A stretch of 64,000 nt of DNA from Catajapyx aquilonaris (lineage: Eukaryota), in assembly GCA_000934665.2 (NCBI GenBank), contig JYFJ02000602.1:1-64000 (forward strand), written 5' to 3'. Position numbers and translations under genes: made by a program. Below, one piece after another: positions 3,847 through 33,213 of the stretch. How positions within the stretch are numbered: position 1 is the stretch's first letter; the number at the start of each line of letters is the position of its first letter. The notes below the pieces were generated by a model. That model worked only from the letters and a program-made list of their open reading frames with translations, made no database searches and was not told the origin of the DNA.

Positions 3847-4135
3847 AATTAATAATAATTCATACCCCGTTATCAGCCGGCGGCTCTTTAGGGGGGATAT
3901 TTTTTGTTTTGACTGGAACTCTTCGTTTCGTTTTTACTGCGCTTTTTGGGATAGGATAGGAAAGGAAGGAGGCGGCTGTGGCCTATTAGTTTAGGAAACA
4001 ACTGCGGAATTCTCCTGGAGGAACCGTGGGAAACCACAGAAAACCACAGTTAGAGTTGCCGGCACCGGGATTCGAACCCAGGACCTCCCGATTAGCAGTC
4101 GGATACCATATCCCCTCCGCCACCACTGCTTCGGT
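3847..4135 (-). mobile_element. tRNA-derived SINE with target-site duplication
   Basis: The minus-strand head has an A-box (TGGCGGAGGGG), an anticodon-like stem CCGA-CTGCTAA-TCGG and a B-box GGTTCGAATCC. A GTGGTTTCCC...CCAGG...TAGGCCACAGCCGCCTCCTTCC body resembling arthropod SINE cores follows, then an ATT-rich tail. Flanked by ACAT(A/G)ATACTAGATATAAT at 3828-3846 and 4136-4154. Confidence 0.85.
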
Positions 4136-9291: not shown

Positions 9292-12200
9292 ATGTCAGGC
9301 CAAGCCATGGATTTGGACTCCTTGGTTCCAGCTGGGCTTCAACCGGCCAACCGGCCTAACGACCCAGGTCATGTGCCTTCCAACTACAATAAACTCTCCG
9401 AGAACCTTCGTCGGGTCACACCGGCGGAATTCCAGTGTTCCGTCTTCTGTGGTGGTCGACGATGCAAGTATGAGAACCCATCTAGCTGGAAACCTGAGGA
9501 GATGGCCCTCGATGGCCTCTACTCGCATTGGTCAGTATATGTCAGGTGTACCGCACGTATAACACAAGACGGATTATTTAGGTTGGAGATGTAGGAGGCG
9601 GACCACAGATGGCAGGCAAGTGACGGGTGGCGGTCCAGGGGGGAGAGAATGGAGGTGTAGGAGGCAAACCACAGATGGCAGGCAAATGACGGTCGGCAGA
9701 TCACAAACGGCTTTATTTATATAGATTAGTGTTAGTATTCCTACCCCAGCCTTATGGAGCTTAGTTGCTGTCCGCCACCAACAGTTCGCGGTAACTGTTA
9801 CATGATTGAAACTTGTCCTAATCGTGTGTAACCCGGATATCAGTTCTAGGGATAGTTCGAATCCAATAGTTAGCAAGCATTGACACGTAGGCGGCTTGCT
9901 TATAAAGGCAACGGATCGATGTGGGTGTAAAAGCTTGGGTGGTCGTTGGGGGTGTATATAGTGATGGGCCATGAGGGGGTTTTTGAAGGGGGTTGGTGTC
10001 CGCACGGAAACCCAAACAGGGGATGGTTCCAGGAAGAGATGGTTTTTGTGAACGAGACTATGTATATGCACGCACGAGGGGTGAGTGTGCTTTATTTTTT
10101 CTTCTATTAAACAGGGTGACGGATGAGATTCTGGCAATGGCAAGGCCCACCACAGAGCTGATGAAGAACAAGAATCTTCTGGAGCAGTTTTACAATCTGG
10201 GGATCAAATCTATCATCAATTTGCAAAGGCCTGGGGAGCATGCCAGTTGTGGAGGACCTTTGGAAGACTCGGGGTTCTCCTACGATCCGGACGTTTTTAT
10301 GCAGAATGAAAGTTAGTACCGGTTTTACTTACCCTTTTTTTTGATATCCATACAGTACATCTAAGCAACAGGCAATTGGCGATTCATGATTACTGGCCAA
10401 TTTCAGGCAGTCCATATGCTTGCTAAGCCATCTGGTGGTTTACTTATAATGGGCACTATGCTCATATGGTGTAATTTTCCCGATACACAAAATGAGCAGC
10501 AATACTATAATTATGACCGAAGTACTTTCTGTTATCTTCCATACGTCACTTCTCATTCACCGTTGTTTTGACACTTGTGGAGCTTACCGGCAGTACACTT
10601 TATCTGATAGTCAATATCGCATACAGGGTGTTCAGTTGAATGTTTCAGTTAGCCATTATTGGCACTCAGCTACTTTGTATCCGGATAGTTACCACAAGTT
10701 TTTCTGTATTGCTTAGTTTACTTCTACAACTTCGCATGGAAAGACTATGGCGAGGCGACATTGACGAGTCTACTGGACATGGTGAAGGTGATGGCCTTTG
10801 CCCTGACAGAAGGCAAGGTGGCTATCCACTGTCACGCAGGTAGGAGGAGGAAAAAGGAATCGACATATTTTTTCCGGGGGCTTCAGGGCTGCCACCCCAT
10901 GCAAGTTAAGGACAATACTTTCATGTGTCTTGTAGGTCTGGGTCGCACAGGTGTGCTGATTGCCTGCTACCTGGTGTTCACCCTGAGGGTGAGGGCCAAC
11001 GACGCCATTCGATTCGTTAGGATGAAGAGGCCCAACGCGGTGCAGACCAGAGGACAGATCCTGTGCGTGCAAGAGTTTGAGCAGTTTGTCCTTCCTCAGA
11101 GCATAGTCTTCTGCAACAAGTGGGTTTCTTGGATTTCTCGAGTGTAGCACCCCCAGTACAGCGTGTTCTATCGAAATGTTCGCATTGACCTTTTGACCCT
11201 CATTAAGCAGTTATGGAACAGGCACCTATCAGTGACACCTGAGGTCAAAGTAGACCTTGCTGTAGAAGCACGCTTTTAAAATGGTACACTGTAGTGTACA
11301 ATAAAATTACTGTACGATGAGCTTTTTAGTAGACAATAAAACTGTGCACGTGTACGATACTTCAGGTGGACATGGCGAATGTCATAATTGAATAGGGCTT
11401 CGGTTGTCATCCTTTATTGATGTCCGGTTTTTCCATTCGACCTGCCCGAAACATGTTTATGCCGGATATAAATCTGACACTTAATGCCAAAAGGTCCATA
11501 ACTATGTTTTTAGTGATGTGCCACAGTCACGGAACATTAATCGATGGGCCACTCCCGTACTGGTATATCCGGGATCCCACCCAACTTTGGACACTGATTA
11601 TTTACTAGTGTTTTGTCACACACTATAGGGTGGATCCGCAATGTTACATAACAGAAAAGGTCACACATTCGCACTATTTTTATATACGCTCCTGATGAGT
11701 ACTTGGCACGTATTATTACACGGTGTAATCATTGCATTTGATATAACATTAAAATCATTTGTTGTATGACCGCTGATTGGCCCGCCGAATATTGTTTGTA
11801 ATTGTCCCCCGTTATGCGCCTGCGCAATGGGGCAAACCAGCGCCTCTGGTGGGCAGGAGGAGGAACTTATTATTGTTTATTTATATTATTGTCAATGATT
11901 GATGCATATGAGTAATAATGCGCATACCAAGTGCCTTATCGCTACAACTGCCCACACGTTTGCCTCACCCGAATTGTATCATTATTCACGTGTGTGTGTA
12001 TAGCGCCTGGCATGTATTATCTGGTGCAGCCTACATATATCCGTGCCCTTTTGCTAGCTTGTTGGGGGTTCTCACGCGATGTCGTTCCTTTCCAGAGACT
12101 TTATCAAGAATAAGAAACTGCAGGAGTTCACCCTTTCGCAGTACCTCAACAGGCAGAAGGTCATGCTGCATGGTTACGAAGCTCGAGTATTCAGGCACAT

Positions 12201-14452
12201 ACCCAAGGTGCGTTTTAAGAATGTCCTCGAAGATGTCTGATAGTTAAGTAGGCTGAATATCTGAAGCAGTAAAAAAAAAAAGACCATTTGTGCTGAAACC
12301 TATGATGAACGTTGCATATGTTTTCCCGAAGGACCTTCCGACTGAATAAATCTTTTATCCTCCCTGCACATAGTTGACAATGGTAGATCGATATGGAACA
12401 GGTTTTTAGGCGACTGTCGGTATAGAAAAGGCCGCATTGTCAAATGAAGCTTTGAGATACCGAGGGGATTGATGGTGCGACACTTTTCAATACTACGTAA
12501 AATGTTGGGGGAAGAAAATGATTTAACTTGCGGCAATGAAAGGATTGCGTGTCGAAGTGCTGTAGTAATTATTTTAGTGCTTAAGACACGACTATCGGGA
12601 TTTTACTGCACCTGATACGTTGTAATGTATGGCGCATGACGCAACTAATTGTGGCTCAAGGATGGTCATGAGAGTTCGCAAGTTCATTTGAGTCTAATGA
12701 GATATGCTTATTTGGCAGGTCTTGTTTGCAATATGTGAGCGGCTGTTGAAACTGTGCAATAGGCATCAACCCAACTACCCTAACGGACGTTCAGTGAGCC
12801 AACTGGGCATCCGGTACGAGGTATCTCCTGTGCCATTCACCAGGCATTTCATGTCAGCTCGTCTCGACGAGATTTCCATCCGACCACCTTCCGTCGACTC
12901 ACCCTTCTTCATGAGCCCCTCCAGTAGCGGAGGTAAGTGTTCCGTCTCCAAGTCGGGACATGAATATAATGTTTGTTTCCCAGCTCCTTCGGCAGTGTCC
13001 ACGAGAAGACCCAGCACAGAGTTGGACGCCAGTCTTCGGACGGATGAAGATGAGGACGCCATCATGGGGGACGGAGGAGAGAGTGCGTCTGAAGGAGGCG
13101 GAAGGAGAGGGAGGAGCGGGGGTGGGTCAGGGGGGGTGGGGAGCAGTTCTGGTGGTGGAAGTGGAGGAGGAATGGTCGCAGGGGTTGCAGTCATTGGTGA
13201 CGACTGCAGTTCTCCGGATATGCCCTCTTGCGCGTCTGGAATGCTAGGTAAGGAAGAAAGCCGTATCTGCAATCCAGGAAGGTCCTGATTGGTTTCTTTC
13301 GGTTAGGCATTGACGACAAGAGCCTGGATTCCATTCTGGACGACGGTATTCACGACCAAGACCTGACTGAAAACGTATGCTACCAGGAGTTGAGTTCGCA
13401 ATTGGACCTCCGGAAGGTGACGAGACAGGAAGGTGCTCCGGTTAGTAACCATTCCTCAAGTCCTTTATACTGCTTCCAATTGAAGTGTACGCTTCAGTTG
13501 GAACAATCTGGACACATTATTCACAATATAGTATCGCAAGCAGCCATACTTCGTGGTTGACGTGGCCAAGTCCTTGTTGGCTGATCACCAACTCCTGAGC
13601 GAGGGCCTCCACAAGTACATCCGGCAGTACCGAGTGGACCTCAACCACCGGTACAGTTCCTGGTCCCGATTGGCCACCGAGAAGAACCTTTACGTGCTGA
13701 CTGGACTGCTGTTCACGTGGTTAGAGCACCTGAAGGCGCCCGTACTCACCACCGAGGATCTCAGTGTGATTGTCGTCATGGCTTCCAGACCAGAGGGATG
13801 CATGAAGAAGTTTGACAAGGTACATCGGTATATTATTCGATGGTGCTAAATTACTTAACGTACCGTACCTTCAGGACGCAAGATATACGCTGGAGTATTT
13901 GATACGATTCTTGGCGCGACTTCGGCCTCTCGATAAGGAGATGCAACAAGACCTTCTGAAGCGTTTTGCTGCGTCCCTAACGCATCGGGGGGTGCCCATT
14001 CAAGGAGTGCTAAAACCTTCAGGTAAGGTCAGCCCCTTCAGTACCTGAGGGTCCATGGAAATGTAGCGTAGAGTTGGAAGAAGAGTGAGGCCTACGACAC
14101 ACGAATGCACCTCGTTAGCATCCAGCACCATCACATCGCTACCAGAGAGTGACATCCATACCAAGCAGGCAATTGCTGTTGACCAACCTCTTCTTCAGCC
14201 CCTTTCTCTTTAGGTGGTGGTAGCTTCCGGAAGCTTCGCAACGGAACACTGGGAAAGCTGATGGAGTTTATGGAAAAGTTGATGGACCAAGTTTCGGAGG
14301 ACAGTAGTTGGACCGCCTCGTCTTCGGCAGCCCATACCACCAACTCTTCTCCAGTGATGGCCAGTGTCTCGGCCAATAGGATCACTCCTCCAGCGCCTCC
14401 TGGAGAACTCCGATCACCTTCCACCTCACACCCTGCCAATTATGTTTCGTAG
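9292..14452 (+). CDS. PTPDC1: Protein tyrosine phosphatase domain-containing protein 1 (multi-exon)
   Basis: Exons ~9292-9531, 10115-10311, 10717-10839, 10936-11120, 12096-12207, 12719-12932, 12984-13247, 13307-13440, ~13541-13819, 13875-14022, 14213-14452. Motifs: CSVFCGGRRCKYENP, WVTDEILAMARP, IINLQRPGEHASCG, FYNFAWKDYG, and the catalytic CX5R loop HCHAGLGRTG after splicing. Confidence 0.92.
9584..9692. repeat. Intronic tandem duplication, 66-bp period, 2 copies
   Basis: TGGAG(A/G)TGTAGGAGGC..ACCACAGATGGCAGGCAA.TGACGG at 9584 and 9650. Confidence 0.8.
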
Positions 14453-15642
14453 GATCTGACTTGTGTATGCGCGTACACACAGAGGTGTATATAATTATAA
14501 CAGTTTATGTATATGGTCCTGTATATACACACACAGAGACGACAGTGCTATGTACCTACTACGTCGGCGGCGTTTTGTTCTCGGTCTCACACTGCTGAAG
14601 AGGAAGAAGTAGAGACACCTTTTTACAGCTCAATACAAATGCAAGTGCCTTAGTTAGATTCCGTCCGTTTTTATTCGCACGCAGGCTATACGCGCATTGT
14701 GTACACGCCGTCCTGCTGGTCCGGGAACGGTACAATACTCGGTGATCTGCGTCAAGGTTTGCGGAAAGGACAGAATTGCAGTACAGCCTCTATTTCGGCT
14801 TTGTTTATATTACATGTAGGTGCACTTTGCTGCCTTCCCCGTTTCATGTAGAAATTAGTAGAACATGAACCGCCATGCATGTCTTTCGAATTTTCTCTCT
14901 CTCCACACGCTATAATTTTTTTTTTGTAGGTTTAAAGAATGTGGATTTCTATTCGCACACTGTTGATGCGGGTAAGAATAATTGCGTAACTAAATGTTAT
15001 TTAATACTCTACATTGCTACAAAGATCAGGTCAAACTTTGGCTTCTGCTGTGCCCTCTCTTGCAGCGCACACGCATTCACGCGTCATTTTTTTAACCATA
15101 TCCCTAACGAATTATGTCGACCAAATACCACACCACAACATATGCAAAAACATTTTTGTGAAATTGTTCAGTGTACTGAAGCTGTAAATTTATGATGAGC
15201 ATAGTTACGGCCAGGCGATTACATAATTATGGTGCTTTTATGATTGTGGTTAAAATTATGTAACGATTCGAATCATTCTGTCTAGTCTGCTTGAGCCGTG
15301 TCTATGCTCCTGATTGTTACTAATCGTTTTTGTTAAGAGATTTTAATCTAGAGTTGATGACATTGCCGGCGACTATTTTTACCATAGGTCTTCTAAGTGA
15401 CAATCATCGTTCACCCAATCCCCGTCCAAATCATGCCTTTGACATTAATATAGTTGACGCTTCTGCGACTCCTTTGATTTTAGCACGAAATATGATGCGT
15501 CATCTGGATGTATTTTATAACAAAGAATAAATCTGTAAGAAAGAAAAGTGGCCTGTCTCTCTCTCTCCATGTCTAGTGAAACTAAAAGGCACATTTTATT
15601 AACACTGCGAGTGGAGTGCTCCGGAAGTCCTTTTGGCTGTGA

Positions 15643-18545
15643 TCAAGTCCATTGTTGCCAACACACGACTGCAACAGCGACTGCTATCATTTTGGGCGCC
15701 GTCAACGCTGCGATGGTCTGTGACACGTTGCAAAAGTCGCTGTCGCAGCAGTATATCTCCTCTGCTGAGCTGGTGTCTGCAACAATGGAAAAGAGTGGCA
15801 CAGATGAGTAAGAATCGCAAGTAAACAACTTGAATTAGGAAACTCTCCCGTTTCATTGTTGAATGTGACGTCGCCAAGAGACCGCTCTAATCAAACTAAT
15901 GATATTCCGATTTGAAAGCATCAGCACTGCCATGGAGGGCAATGACCGATTCCGTAACCCTGATAAGGACCCGAAGAATACCCGTGACATATTTAAGGTA
16001 TCTGATAGCTCTCCCAGGTTCCTACCGCCTCCTGCATATGACTGTGGATTGTCAGACCATGAGTATGACGGTAAGGACTTGTCCAGAATTCTCCAGAATC
16101 ATATGTGTGAGCTCCAAATGTTGTTTCCAGAGGGGGAGACGTCCTTTCTGAACTCCTTGAAGGTTCTGGAGGAGGAGGAGAGCATGGTGTTCCAGGATCT
16201 GACCCCTGAGCAACGCGATGCTATTTGGAACGTGACGGAACCCTCTTGCTCCAGGAAGACAAACAAGAACTCGGATCGTCAAAAGGGTCGTGTGCGACCG
16301 ACCAACAACTCCCTTGTTCCCAAGGTGGAGATTCCTCGAAGGAACCGGGTGGTCTCTACCAAGTGCGGACCCATTAGACGAAATGGAGGTAATGTCTGTT
16401 TACAATAACACTCGGATCTATTGTCATGACATTTATGGTTCTCTGTCTGTAGCTGGCAGCAGGCGTGTCATCGGAAATAAGGAGACAGCACAACTTAGTG
16501 AATCCGAGAGCTGGGACTCGACAGACGATTCAGGGGCGTACCGTCAAAAGGGCGAAAGTTCGTCCTCCTCCCCCTCCTCGTCTGATGACGAACGAGAAGA
16601 CGATGATGACGTGTGTGTCCCGAAGATGTCCGTGGAGCCCGTGGACTTCACCAAGAGCCACCTGATTCACGTGCAGGAGGCCGAAATTCACACGAGTTCA
16701 CCAGAGGTGACTTCCTCTCAGGTATGAATAATTTGAATGAAGCCAATTTCGTTGCCGCATATTGACCATGCTTTTTCAGGAGGCGAACCCGAACAAAACC
16801 ACTTCTTCTACCCCATCTGTCGATCCGCTGGAGCTGGAAATTCTGGTGGCCAAAAGGTTCGAGTCGGTCACATCATCTCCTGGACACCTATCCGACCAAG
16901 GCGAAGGTAAGGCAATACATTTGTGGTTGTCCCACGGATCGCTCGAGTGTGACCCTTTCCCTTCACCATGTAAATACTCGTGAAGAGTCTGACTCTACTG
17001 ACACCGAATCCGTCACAGGCGCAATGTGCGAGATGTGCCGCATGTCCAGGGCCAACGTTGCCGAATGCTTCGTGTCCGACCTGACATTGGCAGCAGGAGG
17101 AGACAGGGCAGGAAACACCACCAAGAAGATGGTAAGAATAGACTAAAAACCACAGCTTTCCGCTACCTTTTGCATAAGTATATGTTCCGGTTAGGCTATT
17201 CTGAGGTCTGTGTCCTCATCAGAGGCAAGCAGAGCGTGACCCATCCATTCCCCTTGTTCATTTTACAGGAGCGTGCAGGCCGAGACGGGAAAAGGAAGAA
17301 GGGCTTCTTACACCAGTGGTTTCGGTCCCTTCACAGCTTCTTCCTTCGACTGATGGGCAAGAAGTAGGCGTCTCAACCACTATTCCCCCCCCCCCAACTA
17401 GTTCAGAGTTTATGACCGTAGAAGGGTAAAATAAAGACCATACCACTTGGGTCGTCTGATACAGCTTGTCTGACTCGGTACCATAAGGTTGTTCCTAGTC
17501 GTTGGATCAGTCCGTATCCGCATGTGTCCTGAGGAGCGCATTGGCGGTCCACGATGTCTCCTCGGACGAGCTTCTGCAATGGGACAACGAAAAAGGGGGT
17601 TGAAGGCCTACATGCTCACTGACCTCAAGTCATGACCCGAGGCCGTTACGCGCCTAATCTGGACTTATCTCGGTGGGGGTATTAATCTTCAATGGTGATG
17701 TAATTATTATAATGTTGCGCCAGGTTGGAATTGAAATCTTGCGGTGCAGGATAAGTTTTTCAGGAGTCGTAAGCAGTATTATTTTGTGTGAATAATATGA
17801 GCCAAATCAGGTGTAGCATTGTTGGCGTTAACAGTAAAAATTGAGTATATTATAAAGCAGCAAATATTACCCAATAATTATATTTGCATACACAAACAAT
17901 AATCTAGGTGTGATATAGGAATTCCTTTCCACTATTTGAGCACATATCGGCATTAAATTACAACTAAAAACAACCATGGCGGAATAATATGTATCTAGGA
18001 TTTTTTAAAAAAAACACACAATTTCATAGAGCCATACAATCCACTTCTTATTGCTAATGCTGCCCAAGACCTAAAATGATACTATGGAATTTAAAAAGTG
18101 AAAACGCACGATGAATAACGTGATATGCTCATCCATTAACTTTACTCACTAGACCGCAATTAGTAAGATGAAATGGCCCGATAGTACTTCAAATAACCCT
18201 TAGTTCCCGTTGCAACCCGTTAGGAAAAATGCATGTCCACAAATCAAAAATCTCATTTCTAGAACGTCAGGCACCATTTACAACGAACTTTTCTGACAAT
18301 GTGTAGTATAGTTGACTGATATGCTTCATTACTTGTACCTCCAAAACCAATAGTGTCACAATCAAACTAACCATACACCTGTTCATAATGGGCCTGCAAG
18401 GCTGTGGGTCCCCAATCCAATGTCCACAGTTGTCGCACTTGTAGCAGCTGAGAGGATCCACCGTTGGCACGAAAAGAGCCACCCACAGAGCCACCCACAT
18501 GGCCCACGATGGCCTCCTGGCCAGAAGCACCTTCCGCACCACCAT
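15643..18545 (-). CDS. Ly6/uPAR (three-finger, LU domain) protein, probably GPI-anchored, ~145 aa; exons 18372-18545, 17444-17573, 15643-15776
   Basis: Signal-peptide-like N-terminus, then LSCYKCDNC...PC...RC / ...QC...TC... / IYCCDSDFCN: 10 Cys with the canonical CCxxDxCN end, then a hydrophobic tail. Splice phases (0, 1) match. Alternative ATG at 18500. Confidence 0.88.
15932..17367 (+). CDS. Orphan Ser/acidic-rich protein, 365 aa, nested antisense in Ly6 intron 2; exons 15932-16388, 16453-16721, 16780-16906, 16986-17131, 17269-17367
   Basis: Four short GT-AG introns join five open segments in matching phases (1,0,1,0). Good Kozak context (GCCATGG) and AATAAA at 17430. No family recognised. 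Confidence 0.7.
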
Positions 18546-19962
18546 ACCTTCCAGACTGTGTGCGTGGTACTGGTAAGCAGCAGAAGGCAGCAAAGCCCGT
18601 CGTGGTCTTCACCCAGCTGGAACAGGGAGGAGGTCACCAGTTCTGCTTGGCCACATCCTACCGACCCCATCAGGGGGCCTACGCCCACCTTTAATTGCAT
18701 CTGAATCATCACAAGGGTCAAATTGGAGACGTGGAGGATGGCTTGTTTAGAGAGGGACAAGTTATACGGTACCTGCCCTTATGCAATCAGGTGTTTATTA
18801 GGGGGCTACACCCTTTGTTACGTCAGTAGTTAACTGCGGAAGGGTTGATATGTAATTTAATAACATTGCGTAATATTCGCATGACTTTTCTGCAAAGCAC
18901 GGCTACTCGCGTATGAAACATGCGTGTAATGCATAATGCGCAGAATGTGGAAATGGTGCAATAAACATTTGTTCTAGCGTAAAAATGGGCTTGACAGATA
19001 AATGGACTTGGCCGCAAGGTTTCCAAAAAATGTATGGCTAACCGCATATCACGTCTTCATGTGGTGTTATGCAATTTCAAATGTAGGTCAGATTTTCTCA
19101 TTTCAGCTGCACTTGTTGAGTTGCAGGGATATTACAGGGTGTTGCACTGACCAAGCTTAGTCCAAAAGGGTGAAAAAAGTGAGAAGTCATTGATTATTTG
19201 TAACCAGTTTAAAGAAAAGCAATAATTACAAGTAAGTGTTTGGAATGTGTTGATTGTCTTCAGACATGCTGCTGTGCTGAGGTAAATAATCCGTGACTTT
19301 CCCTCTTTTGAACTGCGGATATGGCCACTATGCACTGTTCCGCATGACTACATTTTTATTCACACAATTGAAAAGGCGTTTGCTTTGTTGTAATAATTAT
19401 TATGGAAGTCTACTATGAATGAAAACAGCATTATTCTTAAATTAATTTCCATAAGGTGATGTAAGCTCCAGGTAGTGCTGATCAACTTACAAAACCAACT
19501 ATTGTCTGGTGCAACAGGCCTTTTGATAACTTTAATTCCTGAGCCAATATTACCCTATAACCATCCCAAAACCACTTCAAATATCGCGCGTTATGAACGG
19601 TAGCCAATTCACTCTGCAGCGCTGCCAACATGTCACGGGCTTCCGAATATCCCTCCAACTAATTCTATCCTGCATTTCCTTTTTCTGGGCCACATCAATC
19701 AACACGTAGGTTTTTGCCTGGCTCTGATTTCCTGCCTGCCTTTTCTTCGTTTTGTTTCCCACTAATTAAATTCCAATGTGTCGTCCTTGACGAGGGGGGG
19801 CAAATGTAGGTCGGTTCTGTTACCGTAATAATTATTATCTCCAGTGATGCGGATCCGTACCTGCTCCACATGCTGATACAGCTGGGGGAGGGGGATACCT
19901 TTTGTGTTGATTGTGTGGGCAGGTACCTTGCAGCTTTAACCCCTTTGCAGAGTTGGAGGAGG

Positions 19963-21592
19963 ATGGGTGCTGGTAAGAGTCAGTTCAGCGAGTCTGAGCT
20001 GGAGGATTACCAGGACCTGACCTACTTCACCAAGAAGGAGGTGCTGGCTGTGCACCAGAAGTTCCGCGCTCTCTGCCCCGAGAAGGTGGCTCACAACCGA
20101 AATGCCAAATTGCCGCCTGCCAAGCTGCTGCTCTTCCCGGAGCTGAGAGCCAACCCGTTTGCCAGTCGCATTTGCCACATCTTCTCCTCCACCAGGGACG
20201 GGGAGTGCACCTTCGAGGACTTCCTTGATATGATGTCCGTCTTTAGCGAAAATGCACCCGCTTCGGTCAAGGCGGAGTATGCTTTCAGGTAAGACGTGTG
20301 CTTATACTTGGCTTTGTAATGCAGTAGAAGCCTGATTATTCATCACCTATGGGACCACGGGATGGTCGGAACGCAAGAAAGGTTGGATAATGCCAGGAGC
20401 AAAGAAAACTTTAATGAAACACAACACAAAACATATAAAGACCATGACGTAAATGTACAATATTATGGCTTTCTAAGAAATAGTGAAGTACCAGTGGTAC
20501 CGGTATTTATCTTTTATTCATGGCAAAGGGAAACTCGCGGACAATTGCCAGGTAGATTGATAATACTAGTAAAACTAATATAGAGATGTGGATTTAGTTT
20601 TGGGCGCTGTTACATAGTTAATGCGTACGGTGCCGTCAAAGTTTAGTGATGTCGCATCCACTCCTCCAGTTTCAAAGAAGCAACAGTCAGCTCAAGGGCC
20701 TCCAAACAATTCAGCCTTGGGTAGCCTACATAACAGATCGTCCATGTGCAATAGGTGATCAAATCCCGTCAGAGTAATAATCCGGGTGCAACACCCATGC
20801 ACTTTGTCGTTTTTACCTAATATTTTACCATCCGTCCCTCTACACCATATGCATTAACTATGCAATGGCGCCCAAAACTAATTCCACATCCCTACATTAG
20901 TTTCGGGAGTACTTTCAGTCTACCTGGCGATTGTCTGCGAGTTTCCATTCATCCTGTATGCGCACTCTACTCTACTGTATTTACAAATTAACTACGGCAA
21001 TACAAAACAAATCCGTAGTACATTACAGTATTTGATGAGAAAACAGATTTATTGCTGGAGCGGGATGGTCAGATAAACTGAGGAGTCGGATAATCCAAGG
21101 TTGAATAATCAGGATTCTCCTGCAGTTCCAATTATTGTCACACACATTATTGTATGATACATAGAGGCATAATAATGAGCCATAAAATAAGGTGAAGTCC
21201 ACTGAAAGCAATTTTGTTGCAAGGTCAAAGGTCTATTATGGGGCAACCATGAACAGTTTTAAAAATAAAATGCAAATTAGTGCTTTTCACGTGACCTTTA
21301 TCAATAGGCGACATGACCTGAATTAATAGAGTTAGAAAGTGCTATAATATTATTGCTCTCTAGGATATTTGACATTGATGGCGATGACATGCTTGGCCCT
21401 GAGGACCTCCGGGAGGTGATCCGACGCTTGCTGGGTCCAGAACAGTTGGGTGAGTCCGACTTGCAGCTCCTCATTCAGAACGTGATGGAGGAAGCTGACT
21501 TGGATGACGACGGAATGCTCTCTTTCGCTGAATTTGAGCATGTAATATCAAAGTCTCCAGATTTTGTGCAAGCATTTAGGATCAGGCTGTAA
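19963..21592 (+). CDS. CIB1: Calcium- and integrin-binding (CIB1-like) EF-hand protein; exons 19963-20288, 21364-21592
   Basis: N-myristoylation-type start MGAGKS, EDYQDLTYFTKKE, PELRANPF, FEDFLDMMSVFSE, YAFRIFDIDGDD, EF-hand DLDDDGMLSFAEFEHVISKSPDF. Paralog assignment is approximate. Confidence 0.88.
20529..20956. mobile_element. MITE-like element with ~105-bp degenerate terminal inverted repeats in the CIB intron
   Basis: 20529-~20632 (GGAAACTCGCGGACAATTGCCAGGTAGA...TTTTGGGCGC...ATAGTTAATGC) is the approximate reverse complement of ~20843-20946. The right end ATCCTG-TA resembles a Tc1/mariner CAGG.TG terminus. Confidence 0.75.
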
Positions 21593-24130: not shown

Positions 24131-27100
24131 TTATTTTTTCTTGTCTTTGCCTTTGCCTTTTCCTGCATCCGGTTCTTTCTCTGTAAGCATCTTGTTTCTC
24201 TTCTTTCCCATAGGTGTTTTGTCAAACCATTTTTTGTACTGGTCTTCTTCTTCCCTGATGGCAAGAAAAAAAGCATCTCGAATAATTTGTCACTATCCAA
24301 GGTTTTTCAAAGTTAATACACCAAAGGTGTCATGCCATTCTCAACTCTGATGTCATGATCATTTGGACCAGGATCGATTCTGATAGTGGGTAGATTCAAA
24401 TAACCCTAAGAAAACATAATTTTACTAACTTGAACATTGGCAGATACTTGGCCAGAGCATCAACGAACTCCGATATTTGTATTGGCTTGTATTTAAGTTG
24501 CAACATCCTTCTCTTGGTGAAGACGTCTTTGATTACTTGCAGGATATTTCCTACTGTGTATTTATCTGACAGTTTGGTCAGCAGACTAAAGTCGAAGTGA
24601 GGGCTGGTGGTTGGAAGATGTTTATACATGGCACTTTTCCACAGAAGAAGCCGAGCTGCATGATCCGGAGGAGGAATCAACAGCATCCGGTTAAATGCTT
24701 GTGACATTCCCTTAGCTTCACCTTCCCATGGCTTGGAGGAGAGACCCACCATGATGAGTTGGTCCAGGGGCCCCACACCTTTCATCAATTTTATGAGGTC
24801 TTTCTTGATCCTCTTTGGCTCACTTTTGTCTGTCTTGGGCACCCGCTTCTGGAAGGTCCTGTGTGCTTCATCAAGCAATATAACTGACGGCTGCATCAAA
24901 CGGCCCACTTTTGACACCAGGTGCATCAGCATTTGAAGACCTGGTTTCCCTGGGTATTTCCCTTCTAAGTTACTGGCGGAAAGGTCGAAAAGTACAGCTC
25001 CAAGGTGTGTGCAAATTGCATTTAGGAGCAGGTGCTTTCCTGTACCGGAGGGACCAGCTAGCAGCACTGACTTCAGTACCGGAAGGGAGGCATGAGCATA
25101 GGCAGACCCTGTAAGAGTGAGTGATTACATTGATTGCTAAAAGCCACAGTTACGACTAACTAATGATTAACAATTATACATGAAGAGTTGGCACCTACCA
25201 ACACCCAATATGCAATACTCAGAGACCACACGTCGAATGTCACCAAGGCAAGGGAGAGGATTTTTGTTCTCTGCTCTCTCAAGCACTCCAGAGTAGCTTG
25301 CCTCTCCGAGAAATTCAGAGATGTCAACTTTGGGGTACTTTTTGATGATTCCTTCTATCACAAGTTCCTCGTACAGGGAATCAAGTGTCCTATCTGGAGT
25401 CAGGTCTTTTTCTTTGCGGCCCTTCTTGCCTTTACCCTTCCCCTTCTTCTTTTTCTTCTTCTTCTTCTTGCTCTTTTTCTTCTTGTCTCTGTCAAGTGCC
25501 TGAAAGGAAGCGCCTCTATAGGTAATTCAAAAAGCTGTGAACTTTTGTGTTACTAATCTGTAATGGCATGAATCCCTCTTAAGCCAGTGGTCTTCAACTT
25601 TAAGTAGTGCTGTGGTTAGAAAATTTTGGTGGATACCCAGGGTGGATTACTTACTTGCTTTAGTTGTTCCAGTTCCACTCTCATAAGTGCGTCCACCACT
25701 TGCCTCATTTCGGACTCCACCTCTGGACGTTTCAGAGCTTTAACCATTTCAACTACGTGAGATTGTTCAGGATTGTCGCTCTCATCCAAATATTTCCACA
25801 CAGCTGTAAATTAAGCTGCTGTATAAACCTTACATTCATTCACACGAGAGCTGTGCTCACCTCTGTATTCCTCGCACATTTCTTTAAACACCTCTGTAAA
25901 CAAGGAAGGCTCTACTGCCACTTCATTGTCATCTTTTTTATTCTTCTTGGCATCCTTTTTGCCTTTTTCCTCCTTCTTGTCCTTCTCACCCTTTTTGCCC
26001 TTTTTATCCACGACTGGTTCTTCATCAATGGGCGGAGGGTTAAAAATTAACGCTGATCCTCCTTCGTCATCTGATGGATATTCAGGGAAGTTTCCAGTCT
26101 GCTCTCGGGTGGTGATGAACCAATCTCGAATGTCGTCCTGCATTGTTTCCTTCATGGTTGGGCCTTCGGTGACCACCAGATATTCCCTCACTTCTATCAG
26201 GGCGTTCTGGTACTCTTCCTCATACTTGATTTGCGTTTTTCTCCGTGACTCCTCAATTGCAGTCAGCTTTTCTTTAAGGCTGTTGTCTGGTGGAGGAGCA
26301 ATCTGAAGCGAAGTTAAACGTAATTTAGTGTGAATTGGGACATGACTCGATGCTATGCAACTTGTTTGTAGCAGACATTGTGTACAATGGAAACTTGGCC
26401 ACCACAAGTATTTTAATTATAATTATTTATTTTGTTTTTTATTTTTTCGTGTTTGCAGGTGACAGCGTGTTGCTGTCATACTGTACAAGTTCTGTTCAAG
26501 TAGTGAAACCGCTACAGGTAAGTAACTATCTTGCTATCATTAAGCATGTAACAATGTTACCATTCCAAGAAACATGTCCTCCTCATCCTTCATCCTCTTC
26601 ACCCTCCTCATCGTTACGAACCTCCTGATCCAACTCTGAATCTTGGTTGCTGCCTCTTCAGGAGTGAACCTGGGAATGGACACTTTCTTTTGCCTACTTC
26701 TTATTTCCTTCTTCCTGAGAGTCAGCATGAGACGATATCTCAGTCTCCCCTGACGTGCCCTTTCATTTGTCTGAAGCAACTTGATTGCTTCTTCTATGGT
26801 CATGACTTTTGCTTCCGGTTCCTAGAGTTAAGTATGGTTTCTTTATAAATGAATGAGAGGGAAGCACCTGAGGAGCAGTACCTCTTCACCCAAAGCGAAC
26901 TTAATGTCTGAGTATTGGGTCGCTTTTTTTTCTAGGAAGGTCCGCCTGTCCTGGGCAAAGTACCTTGGGATTGGAATTTCGGTGTTCAGTGGTGTCATTT
27001 TCTCATCGAGCATGGGATTGTCAATGAAATTGACATCAGCCAGATCCATTAAGACCATTTGTTGCTGTCAAAAATATACAAGATATTTCCATCTGTGGTG

Positions 27101-28987: not shown

Positions 28988-31777
28988 ATGTCCCTCCTGC
29001 CTGCCCTGATCGGACGAGGGGCCCACCGCCTGCTCTACTGGGGGGTGGCATTCCTGGTGGCCTACGTGCTCTTCACCTGCTATGCCGCCTACAAGCTCTA
29101 CACTGCCTCCTCAGCATCATCATCATCGGAGGAGGAGGGCATCCTCGTCCAGGCCGGTACTGTGCTGCAGCTGCACACCCATGCCTGTCCCAGCTTGGTA
29201 ACGAAGGTTATTCGCAGGAGATGTGCTGCAGAGGAGGAGGAATGCAACCGCGGAGCACGTGAGGCTGGATGTGGAGGTCTGGGGGAAGGCTGCCGTTGGG
29301 CTCTACCTCTGGGAGCATGTGCTGGGGGCCACGCTGCAGGTGATTACATGCATGCTCTGCTCAACCATGGTGGGAAACCAAGCCTAGACATTATTCAGGC
29401 AGTCCAGACATAGTGTCTAATCTTTCACTCCATTCCCTGCAAGCCAAAGAGGATGTTTTGGGATAATGATGTCCATTCAAATTGACAGAGCTGCCATGTG
29501 TGAGGTACTATATCGCTCAAAAATATGAGAGACGATTTTGCATTTTGTTTCAACGCACCGGCTGTCTCCCCAAATCGCTCAAAGCCCTCCAGGGGAACGT
29601 AAATAAAAATAACAAATATTTATTTCAATACAAGATTGTCTCCGTTTTTTTGCGCAATATACTAGTACAAGTAACATGTATTCATGACATACCAACTTCT
29701 CTTTTATTGCCCAAGGATGTGTACTTTTAGTTCAAGTAAGGAGGGTTGTATTATGATGATGTGGTGGATCTAGTCTTGCACATGTTCTGAACTGTACATT
29801 TGTATAAAGTCTTTCTGCACCCATGCTCTGAATTATTCAAAGTTCGCACCACTTTTTGAACAGGTGAAACTCACTGCATAACTTGACAGTAACATGCGGC
29901 AGGAGTGTTTGTTGAGATGTTGCGTATGCAAGGTCACATCTGACATTGTAATGGTAATTTTGGGTACTGATGGGACTAGCCTTGAATTATTATTATTATT
30001 AGGTGTACAATTTTCCAATTGATAAAAAGGTGTTGTTGACATTGTTATGCTAGTACTCCAGTTATATCAGAAATGAGAAGAAATTTTCTTCATGATTGAT
30101 GTGCTGTAACTGACAATTTCTGTTATACTGCTTTTGATGGATAGCTCAGCTGAGAAAGGGTTGAATGTAGCAGTTGCTATATAATAGGGCCCCTGGATAG
30201 GGCAGAATAAGCTACAAAAAAAGTAACAGTTTCAAGCAAAATTTCCTGTACCTAAAGGGTACTGTATATTTATATTTGTATAAATAGAAATGTATTAATT
30301 CCCATGTAGAGAATGTGTGCAGTGCTGGTGGGCAGGTAGTATCATTATCAATCTGAATGCTAGGTCATTATGCTTTGAAGATGTTAATAAGTAGTTACAG
30401 AAAGAGTTAGGCAGATTAAGTGATCGATTCCTAAAATTTCACAGGATGTGGATGGTGGCCTGTGGCGTTATGGTGTCTTCCAAGTGGGTGACCTGACACT
30501 GACCTATCGCAATGGTCCTGCCATCACCCTTGACACTGTACCGCCCCATGCGACTCATGTGATTTTGGTGCTAAATGGACGCTCACCTGAGAAGATTGAG
30601 TATTCCCGGACATGGCTGGACCATCTAAAGAGGAAGCAGCATTCAGGACGATTAAAAAAGGCTGCTGTTGTTATTCTGGGAGATGAAAAGTGTGAAAATG
30701 ACTGGCTGCTTCCATACATGGCTTCGAGGGGCGGGCCCATCAATGCTGTGTTTATGATATATGACAGCCTGTTGATTGATAACAAGGAATTTTTTCAGTG
30801 GCCTTTAGGAGTAGCCATGTAAGTAGGTGTAATTCAGCAGCAGCACTGAAATTCCTTATTTGTGCCTCTGATCCTGCAGATACAGGAATTTCCCAAGAGT
30901 AGATGCAGAAAGTTTGGACATTGTGTCCCAGCGAGCATATACATGCAACTTTTTTGGGACAGTCTATCCTGGTTCGTCCAGGGAAGAGCTGATGGACATT
31001 TTGGAGAGGCATAATCTCAGGGAGACATGCTACTCACGAACTAGAAGCGAGTGAGTCTAAACTTGTTCATCTGAAAGCGTATAGCTAAGGCAGTTTAGGT
31101 GTTGTTGTATCTATAGTTAGCACAGCAGTTTCTGCCCGGTAATTTTTATTATATCTAAAATCAACTGGCATACAGTCCTTTAAACGAGAGAATCATCTGA
31201 CATCACAGTAGCCATGTTTTCTGAGTATGTGCAGCGGAGTGATTCGGGGATGTGATAGTAGGGAAGAGCCAGCTGGACAGATCGTTCTTTAGCTTAAAGC
31301 ACTAGTTATATTTAGCGGTGATTACATCACAGAAAATTTCAATTAATTTCTTTATTTATATACAGGTGGGTGCCTCAAGAAACTGAGGAAACTCTCAGCG
31401 CCTATGTCGATGCTCTGCGACAGTCAGATCTGACACTCAGCCCCACTGGCAAAAACACTGAATGCTACCGTTTCCTGGAAGCCCTCTCTTTAGGAAGTAT
31501 TCCTGTGGTAGAAGATGTCTCAACTCCAGGAAAGTGCTCAACAGAACCACTTCGCCTCTTGAAGAAGCACAAAGCGCCATTTATATACATTAAGCATTGG
31601 AATGAGATTGTGGGACTATTAGAAAAGGAGAAGCAGCTCTCTCTGCAGGATAAAGTTAGTAGGAGAAGGCACGCACTAGAATGGTACCAGGACTTTCGGA
31701 AGCAAATGAAGAAACTATTCCTAGGTGTCATTATGGACAAGTTTTTCTCTCATGCCAGTAATGTGTTACTAGTCTGA
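28988..31777 (+). CDS. RXYLT1: Ribitol-5-phosphate xylosyltransferase 1 (TMEM5), type II membrane glycosyltransferase, multi-exon
   Basis: N-terminal TM helix; spliced motifs VWGKAAVGLYLWEH (29218-29339), ILGDEKCENDW, QWPLGVAIYRNFP, YTCNFFGTVYPGSSR, WVPQET, SDLTLSPTGKNTECYRFLEALSLGSIPVVED. Confidence 0.92.
29508..29665. mobile_element. MITE family X, copy A (RXYLT1 intron)
   Basis: TA-CTATATCGCTCAAAAA..GAGACGATTTTGCATTT left end with a degenerate inverted right end; shared with the 54021 and 60218 copies. Confidence 0.7.
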
Positions 31778-32450: not shown

Positions 32451-33213
32451 CAAGGGCGGATCAAATGAAACCCGAATATGGTGTCTGGACCGGATGCTAC
32501 TTCAGGCATGGATTTGAAACTGCCAGTACAGGAAGATGGTATTGATACCTCCTGTTGGCATGAGTCAGAATCTTCGCACGCATACCACGGCCACAGCCAC
32601 AGGCATTCCAAGATGGCATGCTCCCTATCTCACTTGTCCAAGAGGGATCAACACATTGTCGTTCAATGTTTGCTGGTCGAAGGAAATACACTGGAGCAAG
32701 TTTATAGGAGGATTCTTCCCGTATACGGCAGCAACTGCATGGGAAAGACAAGCGTATGGGAATGGTTTGGGCAATTCCAAAATGGCAGAGAATCCACGGA
32801 CGATCCTCCCTTATCAGCTTGTTGATTGCACGCCGAGCCTGGCCTGGTTGGGGAAGGTCGTCCGTGGATTCTCTGCCATTTTGGAATTTCCTGACCCATT
32901 CCCATATGGTTGCTGTATTTCCCATGCAGTTGCTGCCGTATACGGGAAGCATCCTCCGATAAATTTGCTCCGTTGCATTGCCTTCGGCCAGCAAAAATTG
33001 AACGACAATGCGTTGATCCCTCTTGGACACGTGAGATAGGGAGCATGCCATCTTGGAATGCCTGTGACTGTGGCCGTGGTATGCATGCAAAGATTCTGAC
33101 TCATGCCAATAGGAGGTATCAATACCATCTTCCTGTACTGGCAGTTTCAAATCCATGCCTGAAGTAGTATCCTGTCCAGACACCATATTTGGGTTTCATT
33201 TGATCCGCCCTCG
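32451..33213. mobile_element. Fold-back (palindromic) non-autonomous mariner derivative made of two head-to-head 5' ends
   Basis: TA dinucleotides at 32449 and 33214, termini C(A/G)AGGGCGGATCAAATGAAAC, ~360-bp inverted arms. Each arm encodes the mariner transposase N-terminal HTH (QRIVVQFLLAEG...IYRRMLPVYG...WEWVRKFQNGRESTDD). No DDD catalytic domain. Confidence 0.92.

Follow-up and report, generated by a model that had tools for sequence, protein, structure and literature searches.

Does the second intron of a small Ly6-type gene in this 64,000-nt window (the whole stretch of DNA analysed) harbor a complete protein-coding gene on its opposite strand? The first-pass annotation had proposed a five-exon plus-strand coding sequence (CDS) that spans most of this intron, and had suggested from such tight packing that the two genes may be expressed in a mutually exclusive way or that host splicing may be disturbed. 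By its neighbouring CIB gene the organism is an arthropod; the genome is pancrustacean and its introns are short.

The structure of the host gene was examined with two sequencing runs. Run X1 is a DNA run. Run X5 comes from a sample and a study other than the probable source of the window and appears to be cDNA, as its contigs skip introns. A 1301-nt spliced contig of X5 (record 11) contains the joints 18372|17573 and 17444|15776, the second being the host junction that the first-pass annotation had named as a check. Both skipped stretches have CT..AC ends on the plus strand, which correspond to GT..AG on the minus strand. Record 11 and the translation define a first coding exon at 18372..18547 (ATG at 18545, 58 codons), a 130-nt middle exon at 17444..17573 whose 5′ splice site GT is at 17443-17442, and a last exon at 14785..15776 in which the CDS continues to 15646, the stop codon occupies 15643-15645 and the 3′ UTR extends at least to 14785. 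Intron 2 (15777..17443, minus strand, 1667 nt) is exactly the stretch that the spliced contig skips. The 1667-nt skip is missing from X1, where one contig is contiguous over 13000-20424.

The Ly6/uPAR family is defined by 8-10 Cys residues in a characteristic spacing and a C-terminal CCxxxxCN motif. Translation of the first coding exon gives a signal-peptide-like N-terminus and the first five Cys residues, and the last exon encodes a CCxxxFCN motif followed by a hydrophobic C-tail. The spliced product of 145 aa has a hydrophobic N-terminus, 10 Cys residues in its mature part and the sequence CCDSDFCN, so that both its Cys count and its C-terminal motif are those of the family. A Pfam search carried out exon by exon on the unspliced host exons found no family above threshold; the best match was Activin_recp (E 0.027, 15.9 bits vs a cut-off of 20.9). 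The host product resembles insect Ly6/uPAR three-finger proteins (such as Coiled, PMC3058042; family expansion, PMC4476152) in its hydrophobic N-terminus, 10 mature Cys residues, CCxxxFCN motif and GPI-signal-like tail, and differs in that its exons taken singly fall below every Pfam threshold. From its predicted product we conclude that the host is a three-exon minus-strand gene for a putative GPI-type Ly6/three-finger protein.

On the plus strand of intron 2 we found the CDS as claimed, from an ATG at 15932 in a gccATGG context to a TAG stop codon ending at 17367, the whole lying within 15777-17443. Exon 1 (15932..16388, 457 nt) encodes a PPAY motif and three predicted helices, exon 2 (16453..16721, 269 nt) a low-complexity core rich in Ser, Asp and Glu, exon 4 a CEMC motif, and exon 5 (17269..17367) a KRKK motif, a basic amphipathic helix and the stop codon; exon 3 (16780..16906, 127 nt) was assigned from its splice sites, phase and codon score. 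With exon 4 at 16986..17131, as first annotated, the five exons total 1098 nt, or 365 codons plus the stop, and their phases agree. The four introns, of 64, 58, 79 and 137 nt, are all GT..AG on the plus strand, opposite to the host joints. GC content was 0.51-0.57 in the exons vs 0.36-0.48 in the introns and 0.437 in the window, and GC3 of the CDS was 0.63. In-frame stop codons lie upstream of the ATG at 15809, 15836, 15860 and 15866; an alternative in-frame ATG at 15899 could extend the N-terminus by 11 aa.

A chain of open exons might be expected in any intron if splice sites are chosen freely. When any GT/AG was permitted, shuffled sequence yielded CDSs with a mean length of 840 nt, and consistent phase by itself is therefore weak support for a gene. 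A stricter control allowed only GTA[AT] donors and YAG acceptors and used 300 dinucleotide shuffles. With these sites the region gave a CDS of 1206 nt on the plus strand and of 261 nt on the minus strand, and the shuffles gave a mean of 391 nt (sd 140, maximum 897 nt), none of the 300 reaching 1065 nt. The longest stop-free run, 179 codons, was reached by 3 of the 300 shuffles. We also scored the codons by log-odds, with 1460 codons from conserved genes nearby as the training set. This score, which is partly driven by the absence of stop codons and to that extent circular, was +77.7 in the model frame, and the five remaining frames gave −9.3 to −86.2. Exon 1 scored 26.8 in frame vs −18.9 and −52.1 in its other frames, and every nested exon scored highest in its model frame. 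The controls and the CDS structure together bear out the proposal of a complete-looking multi-exon plus-strand gene within intron 2 of a Ly6-type gene.

Transcript evidence for the nested gene consists of one short X5 contig (record 12, 191 nt) that covers only part of exons 4 and 5; X5 has no cover on exons 1-3, the 5′ region or the 3′ UTR, and so provides no evidence on these either way. Record 12 was placed on 17017-17130, ending at the predicted donor, and is preceded by 15 unplaced letters that were not seen. The X5 depth was 0.93 in the bin 17005-17271 and 4.29 in the bin 17272-17538. Each value equals the contribution of the host exon plus about 118 and about 57 positions, respectively, at a depth of 2.1. 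Applied to the bins with host sequence alone, this calculation returns their depths exactly (4.32, 1.41 and 7.1). The bin depths fit about 58 further letters of record 12 starting at 17269. Record 12 thus appears to cross 17131|17269, a junction deduced from bin depths rather than from a listed joint; the skipped stretch has GT..AG ends only on the plus strand. Reads across all four plus-strand introns had been called for, and X5 points to this one junction, exons 1-3 lying outside its cover. Contigs of host and nested gene are both found in X5, which is uninformative as to cells or tissues.

Record 12 also bears on the 5′ end of exon 4. Two in-frame acceptors are available, 16986 (gtgaAG|A) and 17019 (cacAG|G). 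Because record 12 begins at 17017 and the sequence reads cacAG|G, 17019 is the more likely acceptor; the 2-nt ambiguity in the start of the contig arises because exon 3 ends in AG. Use of 17019 places exon 4 at 17019..17131 and removes 33 nt in frame, giving a product of 354 aa. The first-pass five-exon layout stands; its exon 4 acceptor, and with it the length of 365 aa, was probably slightly off.

At the 3′ end, an AATAAA poly(A) signal at 17430-17435 (plus strand) is the sole canonical hexamer between the nested stop codon and 17833. It lies 9 nt from host exon position 17444, in agreement with the earlier statement that it falls within 10 nt of the host 5′ splice site. Beyond it, a CA at 17444-17445 is followed by GT-rich sequence within the host exon. 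Judged from the position of the hexamer, the transcript would be cleaved at the edge of host exon 2 or slightly within it, and the 3′ end of the nested transcript would then overlap this exon in antisense. At the 5′ end, a scan of 15600-15935 for core-promoter elements found no TATA, DRE or Motif 1 and a single TCATTT at 15687, inside the host exon, and was uninformative.

The predicted nested protein contains 12.9% S, 8.8% E and 7.9% D and has a net charge of −10. In order, it comprises an N-terminal PPxY motif (PPAY, residues 33-36), a small three-helix module, a basic linker, a long acidic Ser-rich stretch with many CK2-type sites, a short Cys-bearing segment (CEMC, residues 299-302), and KRKK (residues 341-344) with the basic amphipathic C-terminal helix. 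AF2 modelling of exon 1 placed helices at 47-64, 69-82 and 92-99 with pLDDT 50-67 and the rest below 50; the overall value of 48.5 is poor. The 32-aa exon 5 peptide was modelled as a helix over residues 10-30 with pLDDT 71. Its hydrophobic moment of 0.54 was equalled by 1.0% of 5000 shuffles, and its W, L and L residues have a putative calmodulin-type 1-5-10 spacing. The first-pass description of a Ser/acidic disordered core, a CEMC motif and a basic amphipathic C-terminus agrees with these features. Proteins that serve as WW-domain ligands expose a PPxY motif to which the domain binds; PPAY is in a segment with pLDDT <50, and from the protein composition the chance of one PP.Y is about 1-3%. 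Features as short as the PPxY motif, the CK2 sites and the helix may arise by chance. As modelled, the product looks like an intracellular, largely disordered acidic and Ser-rich protein without a signal peptide or membrane span.

Homology searches gave no convincing relative. Pfam searches of the five nested exons returned only VWC2L_2nd at E 0.16, on exon 4. Neither exon 1 nor exon 2 had a usable homologue among longer proteins or PDB sequences, and for exon 1 none was found among metagenome or viral contigs. A phmmer search of exon 1 against 1.84 billion representatives gave three hits, all repeat proteins, which we judged spurious. The ESM Atlas recognition value was low, at 1590 (91 of 100 known-family proteins reach 2300), and indicated no family. 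The first-pass remark that the protein belongs to no recognised family accords with these searches (Pfam on five exons, sequence searches on exons 1 and 2), and any reading of it as an orphan is limited by databases that contain only distant relatives, the neighbouring CIB gene being at most 76% identical to its matches. Fast-evolving disordered proteins without detectable relatives are common. The low ESM recognition and the poor AF2 model of exon 1 would also suit a non-functional ORF.

We considered and rejected the possibility that exon 1 encodes a TPR repeat protein. In TPR proteins, helix-turn-helix repeats of 34 residues follow one another in tandem and are recognised by TPR profiles. 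In exon 1, residues 42-84 are 41-42% identical to one helix-turn-helix unit in two weak database hits (P0001 and P0003), and AF2 predicts two helices over the matched segment. The E-values of 1.7e-6 and 1.9e-5 come from summing 5-6 matches between this one query segment and the repeated unit. Only one unit is present, without an array, and no Pfam family matched exon 1 at E up to 1. We read the likeness as chance or at most as a generic helical hairpin.

Four other explanations of the locus were weighed against a protein-coding gene. That the exons are a chance chain of ORFs in an ordinary intron, with the X5 contig being noise from unspliced pre-mRNA or a chimeric assembly, might be suggested by the shortness of the contig and by the ease with which unconstrained GT/AG shuffles produce phase-consistent CDSs (mean 840 nt). 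However, no shuffle attained the model length once realistic splice sites were imposed. Host pre-mRNA would be contiguous, whereas the contig ends at the predicted donor and begins at an in-frame AG acceptor with no intron run-on, and the bin depths put its remainder at exon 5; we regard this explanation as very improbable. If the locus produced a non-coding antisense RNA that is spliced, or were a proto-gene of very recent origin, its frame would not (yet) be selected and any effect would come from antisense transcription across the Ly6 intron. The absence of a homologue from all of the searches, the low ESM recognition and the mostly disordered predicted product are all compatible with such a transcript. 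Set against this are a frame of 1065-1098 nt that stays open across four introns, a length reached by 0 of 300 shuffles, a likeness in codon usage to the conserved genes nearby that is confined to the model frame, the GC3 of 0.63 with a clear GC contrast between exons and introns, and the strong start context gccATGG. On balance a non-coding or proto-gene origin is unlikely.

The exons might instead be part of a larger plus-strand transcription unit whose 5′ exons lie beyond the host intron, for example as alternative 3′ exons of the dual-specificity phosphatase gene or downstream of an unseen first exon. This plus-strand gene is directly upstream, and AG dinucleotides occur ahead of the ATG, past the in-frame stop at 15866. 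The phosphatase gene has its own stop codon at 14450, however, and its contig extends as 3′ UTR as far as 14798 and there meets the contig that ends the host Ly6 3′ UTR. Moreover, the four in-frame stops from 15809 to 15866 close the frame upstream of the ATG, which is itself in a strong context, making a larger unit distinctly unlikely. The last alternative is a domesticated or decaying mobile element or retrogene. Introns are common landing sites for such insertions, and the window contains, elsewhere, a mariner-like remnant and a high-copy MITE-like repeat. Yet Pfam detected no TE, reverse transcriptase, transposase or integrase family on any nested exon, the viral-contig and metagenome scans were empty, and no inverted, direct or terminal repeats flank the gene in the window. 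The window contains the gene once, X1 likewise shows a single copy, in a contig whose depth is uniform at 31.4, and its four spliceosomal introns exclude a recent retrocopy. The match to a transposon that would have overturned the earlier proposal was not seen in these searches, and a mobile origin is extremely improbable. By comparison, a repeat at 20.4-21 kb reaches an X1 depth of thousands.

We think it probable that the plus strand carries a true protein-coding gene, spliced and present in one copy, which is contained entirely or nearly so in intron 2 of the minus-strand Ly6 gene and has a product of 354 or 365 aa. Gene structure, copy number, host splicing and part of the transcript are observed here, and translation, the function of the protein, the 3′ overlap and interference are inferred. 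That product would most likely be a fast-evolving intracellular adaptor or regulator, whose PPxY motif and phospho-acidic tract would be offered to other proteins and whose C-terminal helix would dock either on a membrane or on a helix-binding partner, calmodulin-like or other. The host intron would be long only because of its guest. Deletion bias in a compact genome would have trimmed it to the functional limits of the guest, leaving no more than about 155 nt between the host 3′ splice site and the guest promoter, and 9 nt between the host 5′ splice site and the poly(A) signal. If both genes were active in one cell, their polymerases would run towards each other over the entire intron, and some interference in transcription would be expected. 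A bolder proposal is that the guest is lineage-restricted and possibly recently born, that its promoter and poly(A) site are interlocked with the host splice sites such that the host coding exon serves as a downstream 3′-processing element of the guest, and that guest transcription obligatorily gates how the Ly6 pre-mRNA is spliced or elongated, with the host acting on the guest in turn. The locus would then be a hard-wired bistable switch, producing either the three-finger protein at the cell surface or the disordered regulator inside the cell. We give very little credence to this proposal. Should the gene model hold, a probably unannotated protein-coding gene would be added to an arthropod genome, in a compact host/guest pair that is easy to manipulate. 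Because the guest promoter and poly(A) signal lie so close to the host splice sites, a single compact locus would allow a direct test of the long-discussed interference between nested genes.

Arthropods frequently have genes nested on the strand opposite to their host, and the arrangement seen here is an ordinary one in an unusually tight fit. According to two Drosophila surveys, about 10% of D. melanogaster genes take part in nested pairs, 71.27% of the nested genes run opposite to their host, and nested genes are fast-evolving and narrowly expressed, with 43.91% expressed most highly in testis; interference between nested partners has been proposed (Lee & Chang 2013, PMC3814207; Assis 2016, PMC5174743). 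Like those nested genes, the present guest is short, has few and short introns, and is contained wholly in an intron of an opposite-strand host. The Drosophila hosts have long introns (median total 12,183 nt), whereas the present host is a tiny three-exon Ly6 gene, and its guest takes up about 90% of the 1667 nt of the intron and has a poly(A) signal 9 nt from the host 5′ splice site. Another comparison is with the antisense overlap of TR-alpha2 and Rev-erb-alpha in mammals (PMC3047299). As in this pair, the 3′ end of a convergent gene would, at the Ly6 locus, overlap the splice-site region of an opposite-strand gene. Overlap of this type has been discussed as influencing splice choice. In the vertebrate nuclear receptor genes it is a coding overlap of exon with exon, at an alternative splice site, whereas at the Ly6 locus the predicted overlap would be at most a few to about 20 nt and would involve a constitutive 5′ splice site.

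Run X5 recovered the host, a minus-strand Ly6/three-finger gene, as a spliced molecule. An X5 contig of 1301 nt (record 11) aligned to 18547-18372, 17573-17444 and 15776-14785, skipping 798 and 1667 nt with CT..AC ends, which correspond to GT..AG on the minus strand. The DNA run X1 covered 13000-20424 with a single contiguous contig without these joints. Because record 11 was spliced while X1 was contiguous, we infer that X5, whose sample and study differ from the probable source of the window, is cDNA. The same comparison confirms the host model, including intron 15777-17443 and the 17444 to 15776 junction predicted by the first-pass annotation. The host coding exons (18545-18372, 17573-17444 and 15776-15643, minus strand) specify a 145 aa product whose N-terminus and tail are both hydrophobic. 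Its mature part has ten Cys residues and CCDSDFCN lies close to the end, features that together we take to mark a GPI-type Ly6/three-finger protein. Searched singly against Pfam, the host exons gave no match above threshold (top match Activin_recp, E 0.027). At 14851, in the Ly6 3′ UTR, the X5 contig departs from the window by a single G>T change, probably an inter-sample polymorphism.

Inspection of the host intron confirmed the proposed five-exon coding sequence on the plus strand (15932-17367). As first modeled, its exons (15932-16388, 16453-16721, 16780-16906, 16986-17131 and 17269-17367, the last ending with a TAG stop) join in consistent phase to 1098 nt, or 365 codons plus the stop, and all four introns (64, 58, 79 and 137 nt) start with GT and end with AG. 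GC content is 0.51-0.57 in the exons versus 0.36-0.48 in the introns and 0.437 in the window. The start codon lies in the context gccATGG, and the frame is closed on its 5′ side by in-frame stops at 15809, 15836, 15860 and 15866; an in-frame ATG at 15899 could add 11 residues. An AATAAA at 17430-17435 is the sole canonical hexamer from the guest stop codon to 17833.

Phase consistency by itself is weak evidence for a gene, because dinucleotide-shuffling the 1667-nt intron 150 times, when any GT and any AG were allowed with up to four introns, already gave "genes" averaging 840 nt (maximum 1185); the real sequence gave 1326 nt on the plus strand and 1008 nt on the minus strand. Once GTA[AT] was required of donors and YAG of acceptors, the actual sequence gave 1206 nt on the plus strand versus 261 nt on the minus strand, and 300 shuffles averaged 391 nt (sd 140, maximum 897), none reaching 1065 nt. 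The longest stop-free run, 179 codons, was matched by 3 of 300 shuffles. A codon log-odds score trained on 1460 codons from conserved neighboring genes, which in part mirrors the simple absence of stops, was +77.7 in the model frame versus -9.3 to -86.2 in the remaining five. The model frame scored highest for each exon, and among about 2000 segments drawn at random from the window the best reached 73.2, below the guest value.

X5 also contained part of the guest. Letters 16-129 of a 191-nt contig (record 12) aligned to 17017-17130, ending where the donor of exon 4 is predicted (17131). Its 17131|17269 joint was absent from the listed joint table and was deduced from bin depths. Host-only bins equaled 10.8 times the exon overlap exactly (4.32, 1.41 and 7.1), while bin 17005-17271 (depth 0.93) required about 118 positions at depth 2.1 and bin 17272-17538 (depth 4.29) required about 57 positions over and above the host exon. 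Because these depths equal those predicted for 17017-17131 plus 17269-17329, this one of the proposed plus-strand junctions is strongly implied; the skipped stretch has GT..AG ends on the plus strand only. The first 15 letters of record 12 do not match the DNA immediately 5′ of 17017. Since exon 3 ends in AG and the site reads cacAG|G, the alignment begins 2 nt ahead of 17019, and therefore the true exon 4 acceptor is probably 17019 (CAG) rather than 16986 (AAG). This shift removes 33 nt, keeps the frame and reduces the product to 354 aa; the coding sequence otherwise stands as first described.

We rejected a mobile-element origin of the guest. No transposase, reverse transcriptase or integrase family was found by Pfam on any guest exon, no direct or inverted repeats were found around the gene, and tblastn and blastn revealed no second copy within the window. 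Furthermore, the guest lies within one X1 contig at a depth of 31.4, versus depths of thousands for a repeat at 20.45-20.96 kb. The transposon match that the first-pass annotation had raised as a counter-explanation did not emerge in these searches, and a recent retrocopy is ruled out by the four introns.

Exon 1 (152 aa) and exon 2 matched no protein among the longer candidates and nothing among PDB sequences; the guest exons matched no Pfam family, and metagenome and viral scans and the ESM Atlas (recognition 1590) also yielded nothing. An exhaustive phmmer search of 1.84 billion representatives with exon 1 returned three matches only (E 1.7e-6 to 1.9e-5). Two were TPR-repeat proteins, in each of which residues 42-84 aligned to 5-6 repeat units, and the third was a repeat protein aligned four times by residues 5-54. 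We rejected these as homologues, as they represent summed repeat scores to unrelated families, most simply due to chance. These failed searches do not establish the guest as an orphan, because the nearest relatives in the databases are so distant that a disordered protein would be missed: the first exon of the highly conserved neighboring EF-hand gene CIB (19963-20289) had 217 relatives among 222 candidates, the best being just 76% identical. The top relatives were insects of several orders, and malacostracans were 73-75% identical. These CIB matches place the organism among the pancrustacean arthropods and show that its own proteins and those of its close relatives are missing from the databases searched.

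The guest protein contains 12.9% S, 8.8% E, 7.9% D and 7.7% R, with a net charge of -10. Mean hydropathy over 20 residues never exceeded 0.56, and no hydrophobic stretch suggested a signal peptide or a transmembrane segment. It contains PPAY (residues 33-36), a basic region (+13; ~101-160), an acidic region with many S/TxxD/E sites (~161-300), CEMC (299-302) and KRKK (341-344). AF2 modeling of exon 1 alone gave a pLDDT of 48.5, with helices 47-64, 69-82 and 92-99 at 50-67 and the remainder below 50. The proposed amphipathic basic C-terminus held: a helix was predicted at residues 10-30 of the last 32 (pLDDT 71), with a hydrophobic moment of 0.54 that was equaled by 1.0% of 5000 shuffles. Sequence and models tentatively suggest that the protein is intracellular and disordered, serves as an adaptor or regulator and might dock via this helix.

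Intron lengths nearby are small, at 58-137 nt for the guest and 191 nt for the upstream gene, so the host intron presumably owes its 1667 nt solely to the guest. The span from the guest ATG to AATAAA occupies 1504 nt (90%) of the intron, leaving 155 nt and 8 nt. At the usual spacing of 10-30 nt past the hexamer, guest cleavage would be expected at 17445-17465, within host exon 2, where a GT-rich sequence is a candidate downstream element, and the guest 3′ end would overlap that exon. X5 includes contigs of both genes, which has no bearing on exclusivity between cells or tissues.

The pair is one more case of known opposite-strand nesting. According to a D. melanogaster survey (PMC3814207), nested pairs take in nearly 10% of genes; nested genes lie on the opposite strand in 71.27% of cases, evolve faster and are narrowly expressed, often with testis bias (43.91%), and including genes have long introns (median total 12,183 nt). 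In another study, expression divergence was used to argue transcriptional interference between nested partners (PMC5174743). Like the opposite-strand nested genes of Drosophila, the guest lies inside a host intron; unlike them, it fits tightly in a very small host, the sole unusual trait of the pair. Overall, the first-pass observation was confirmed, with the exon 4 acceptor corrected, and its interpretation was partly supported.

The neighborhood is as compact as the pair. The upstream dual-specificity phosphatase gene (DSPc match at 10689-11147, plus strand) has its stop at 14450, and its contig extends through the 3′ UTR to 14798. This contig shares 14 nt (14785-14798) with the Ly6 contig, whose 3′ UTR extends to 14785, and therefore the convergent 3′ ends abut or overlap tail to tail. 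Family matches also identified CIB, an AAA ATPase (24396-25124), RXYLT1 (N and C domains; 30424-31777) and a GMIP-like FCH and RhoGAP gene with one 580-codon exon (48745-51251); the window is gene-dense and ordinary for an animal genome.

CIB exon 1 is closely followed by a high-copy MITE-like element (20452-20963) with inverted 107-nt arms (20526-20632 and 20843-20949) that are 83% complementary; its summed X1 contig depth is in the thousands versus 31.4 in the flanks, with many variant junctions. An Rfam tRNA match at 4057-4129 on the minus strand (32 bits versus a gathering score of 29, E 0.0091) may be a degenerate tRNA or tRNA-derived repeat; ARAGORN found no tRNA in the window. An open reading frame at 32497-33195 on the minus strand, with a sub-threshold match to HTH_48, the Mos1 transposase HTH (E 6.3e-4, 20.3 versus a cut-off of 24.1 bits), is probably a mariner-type remnant.
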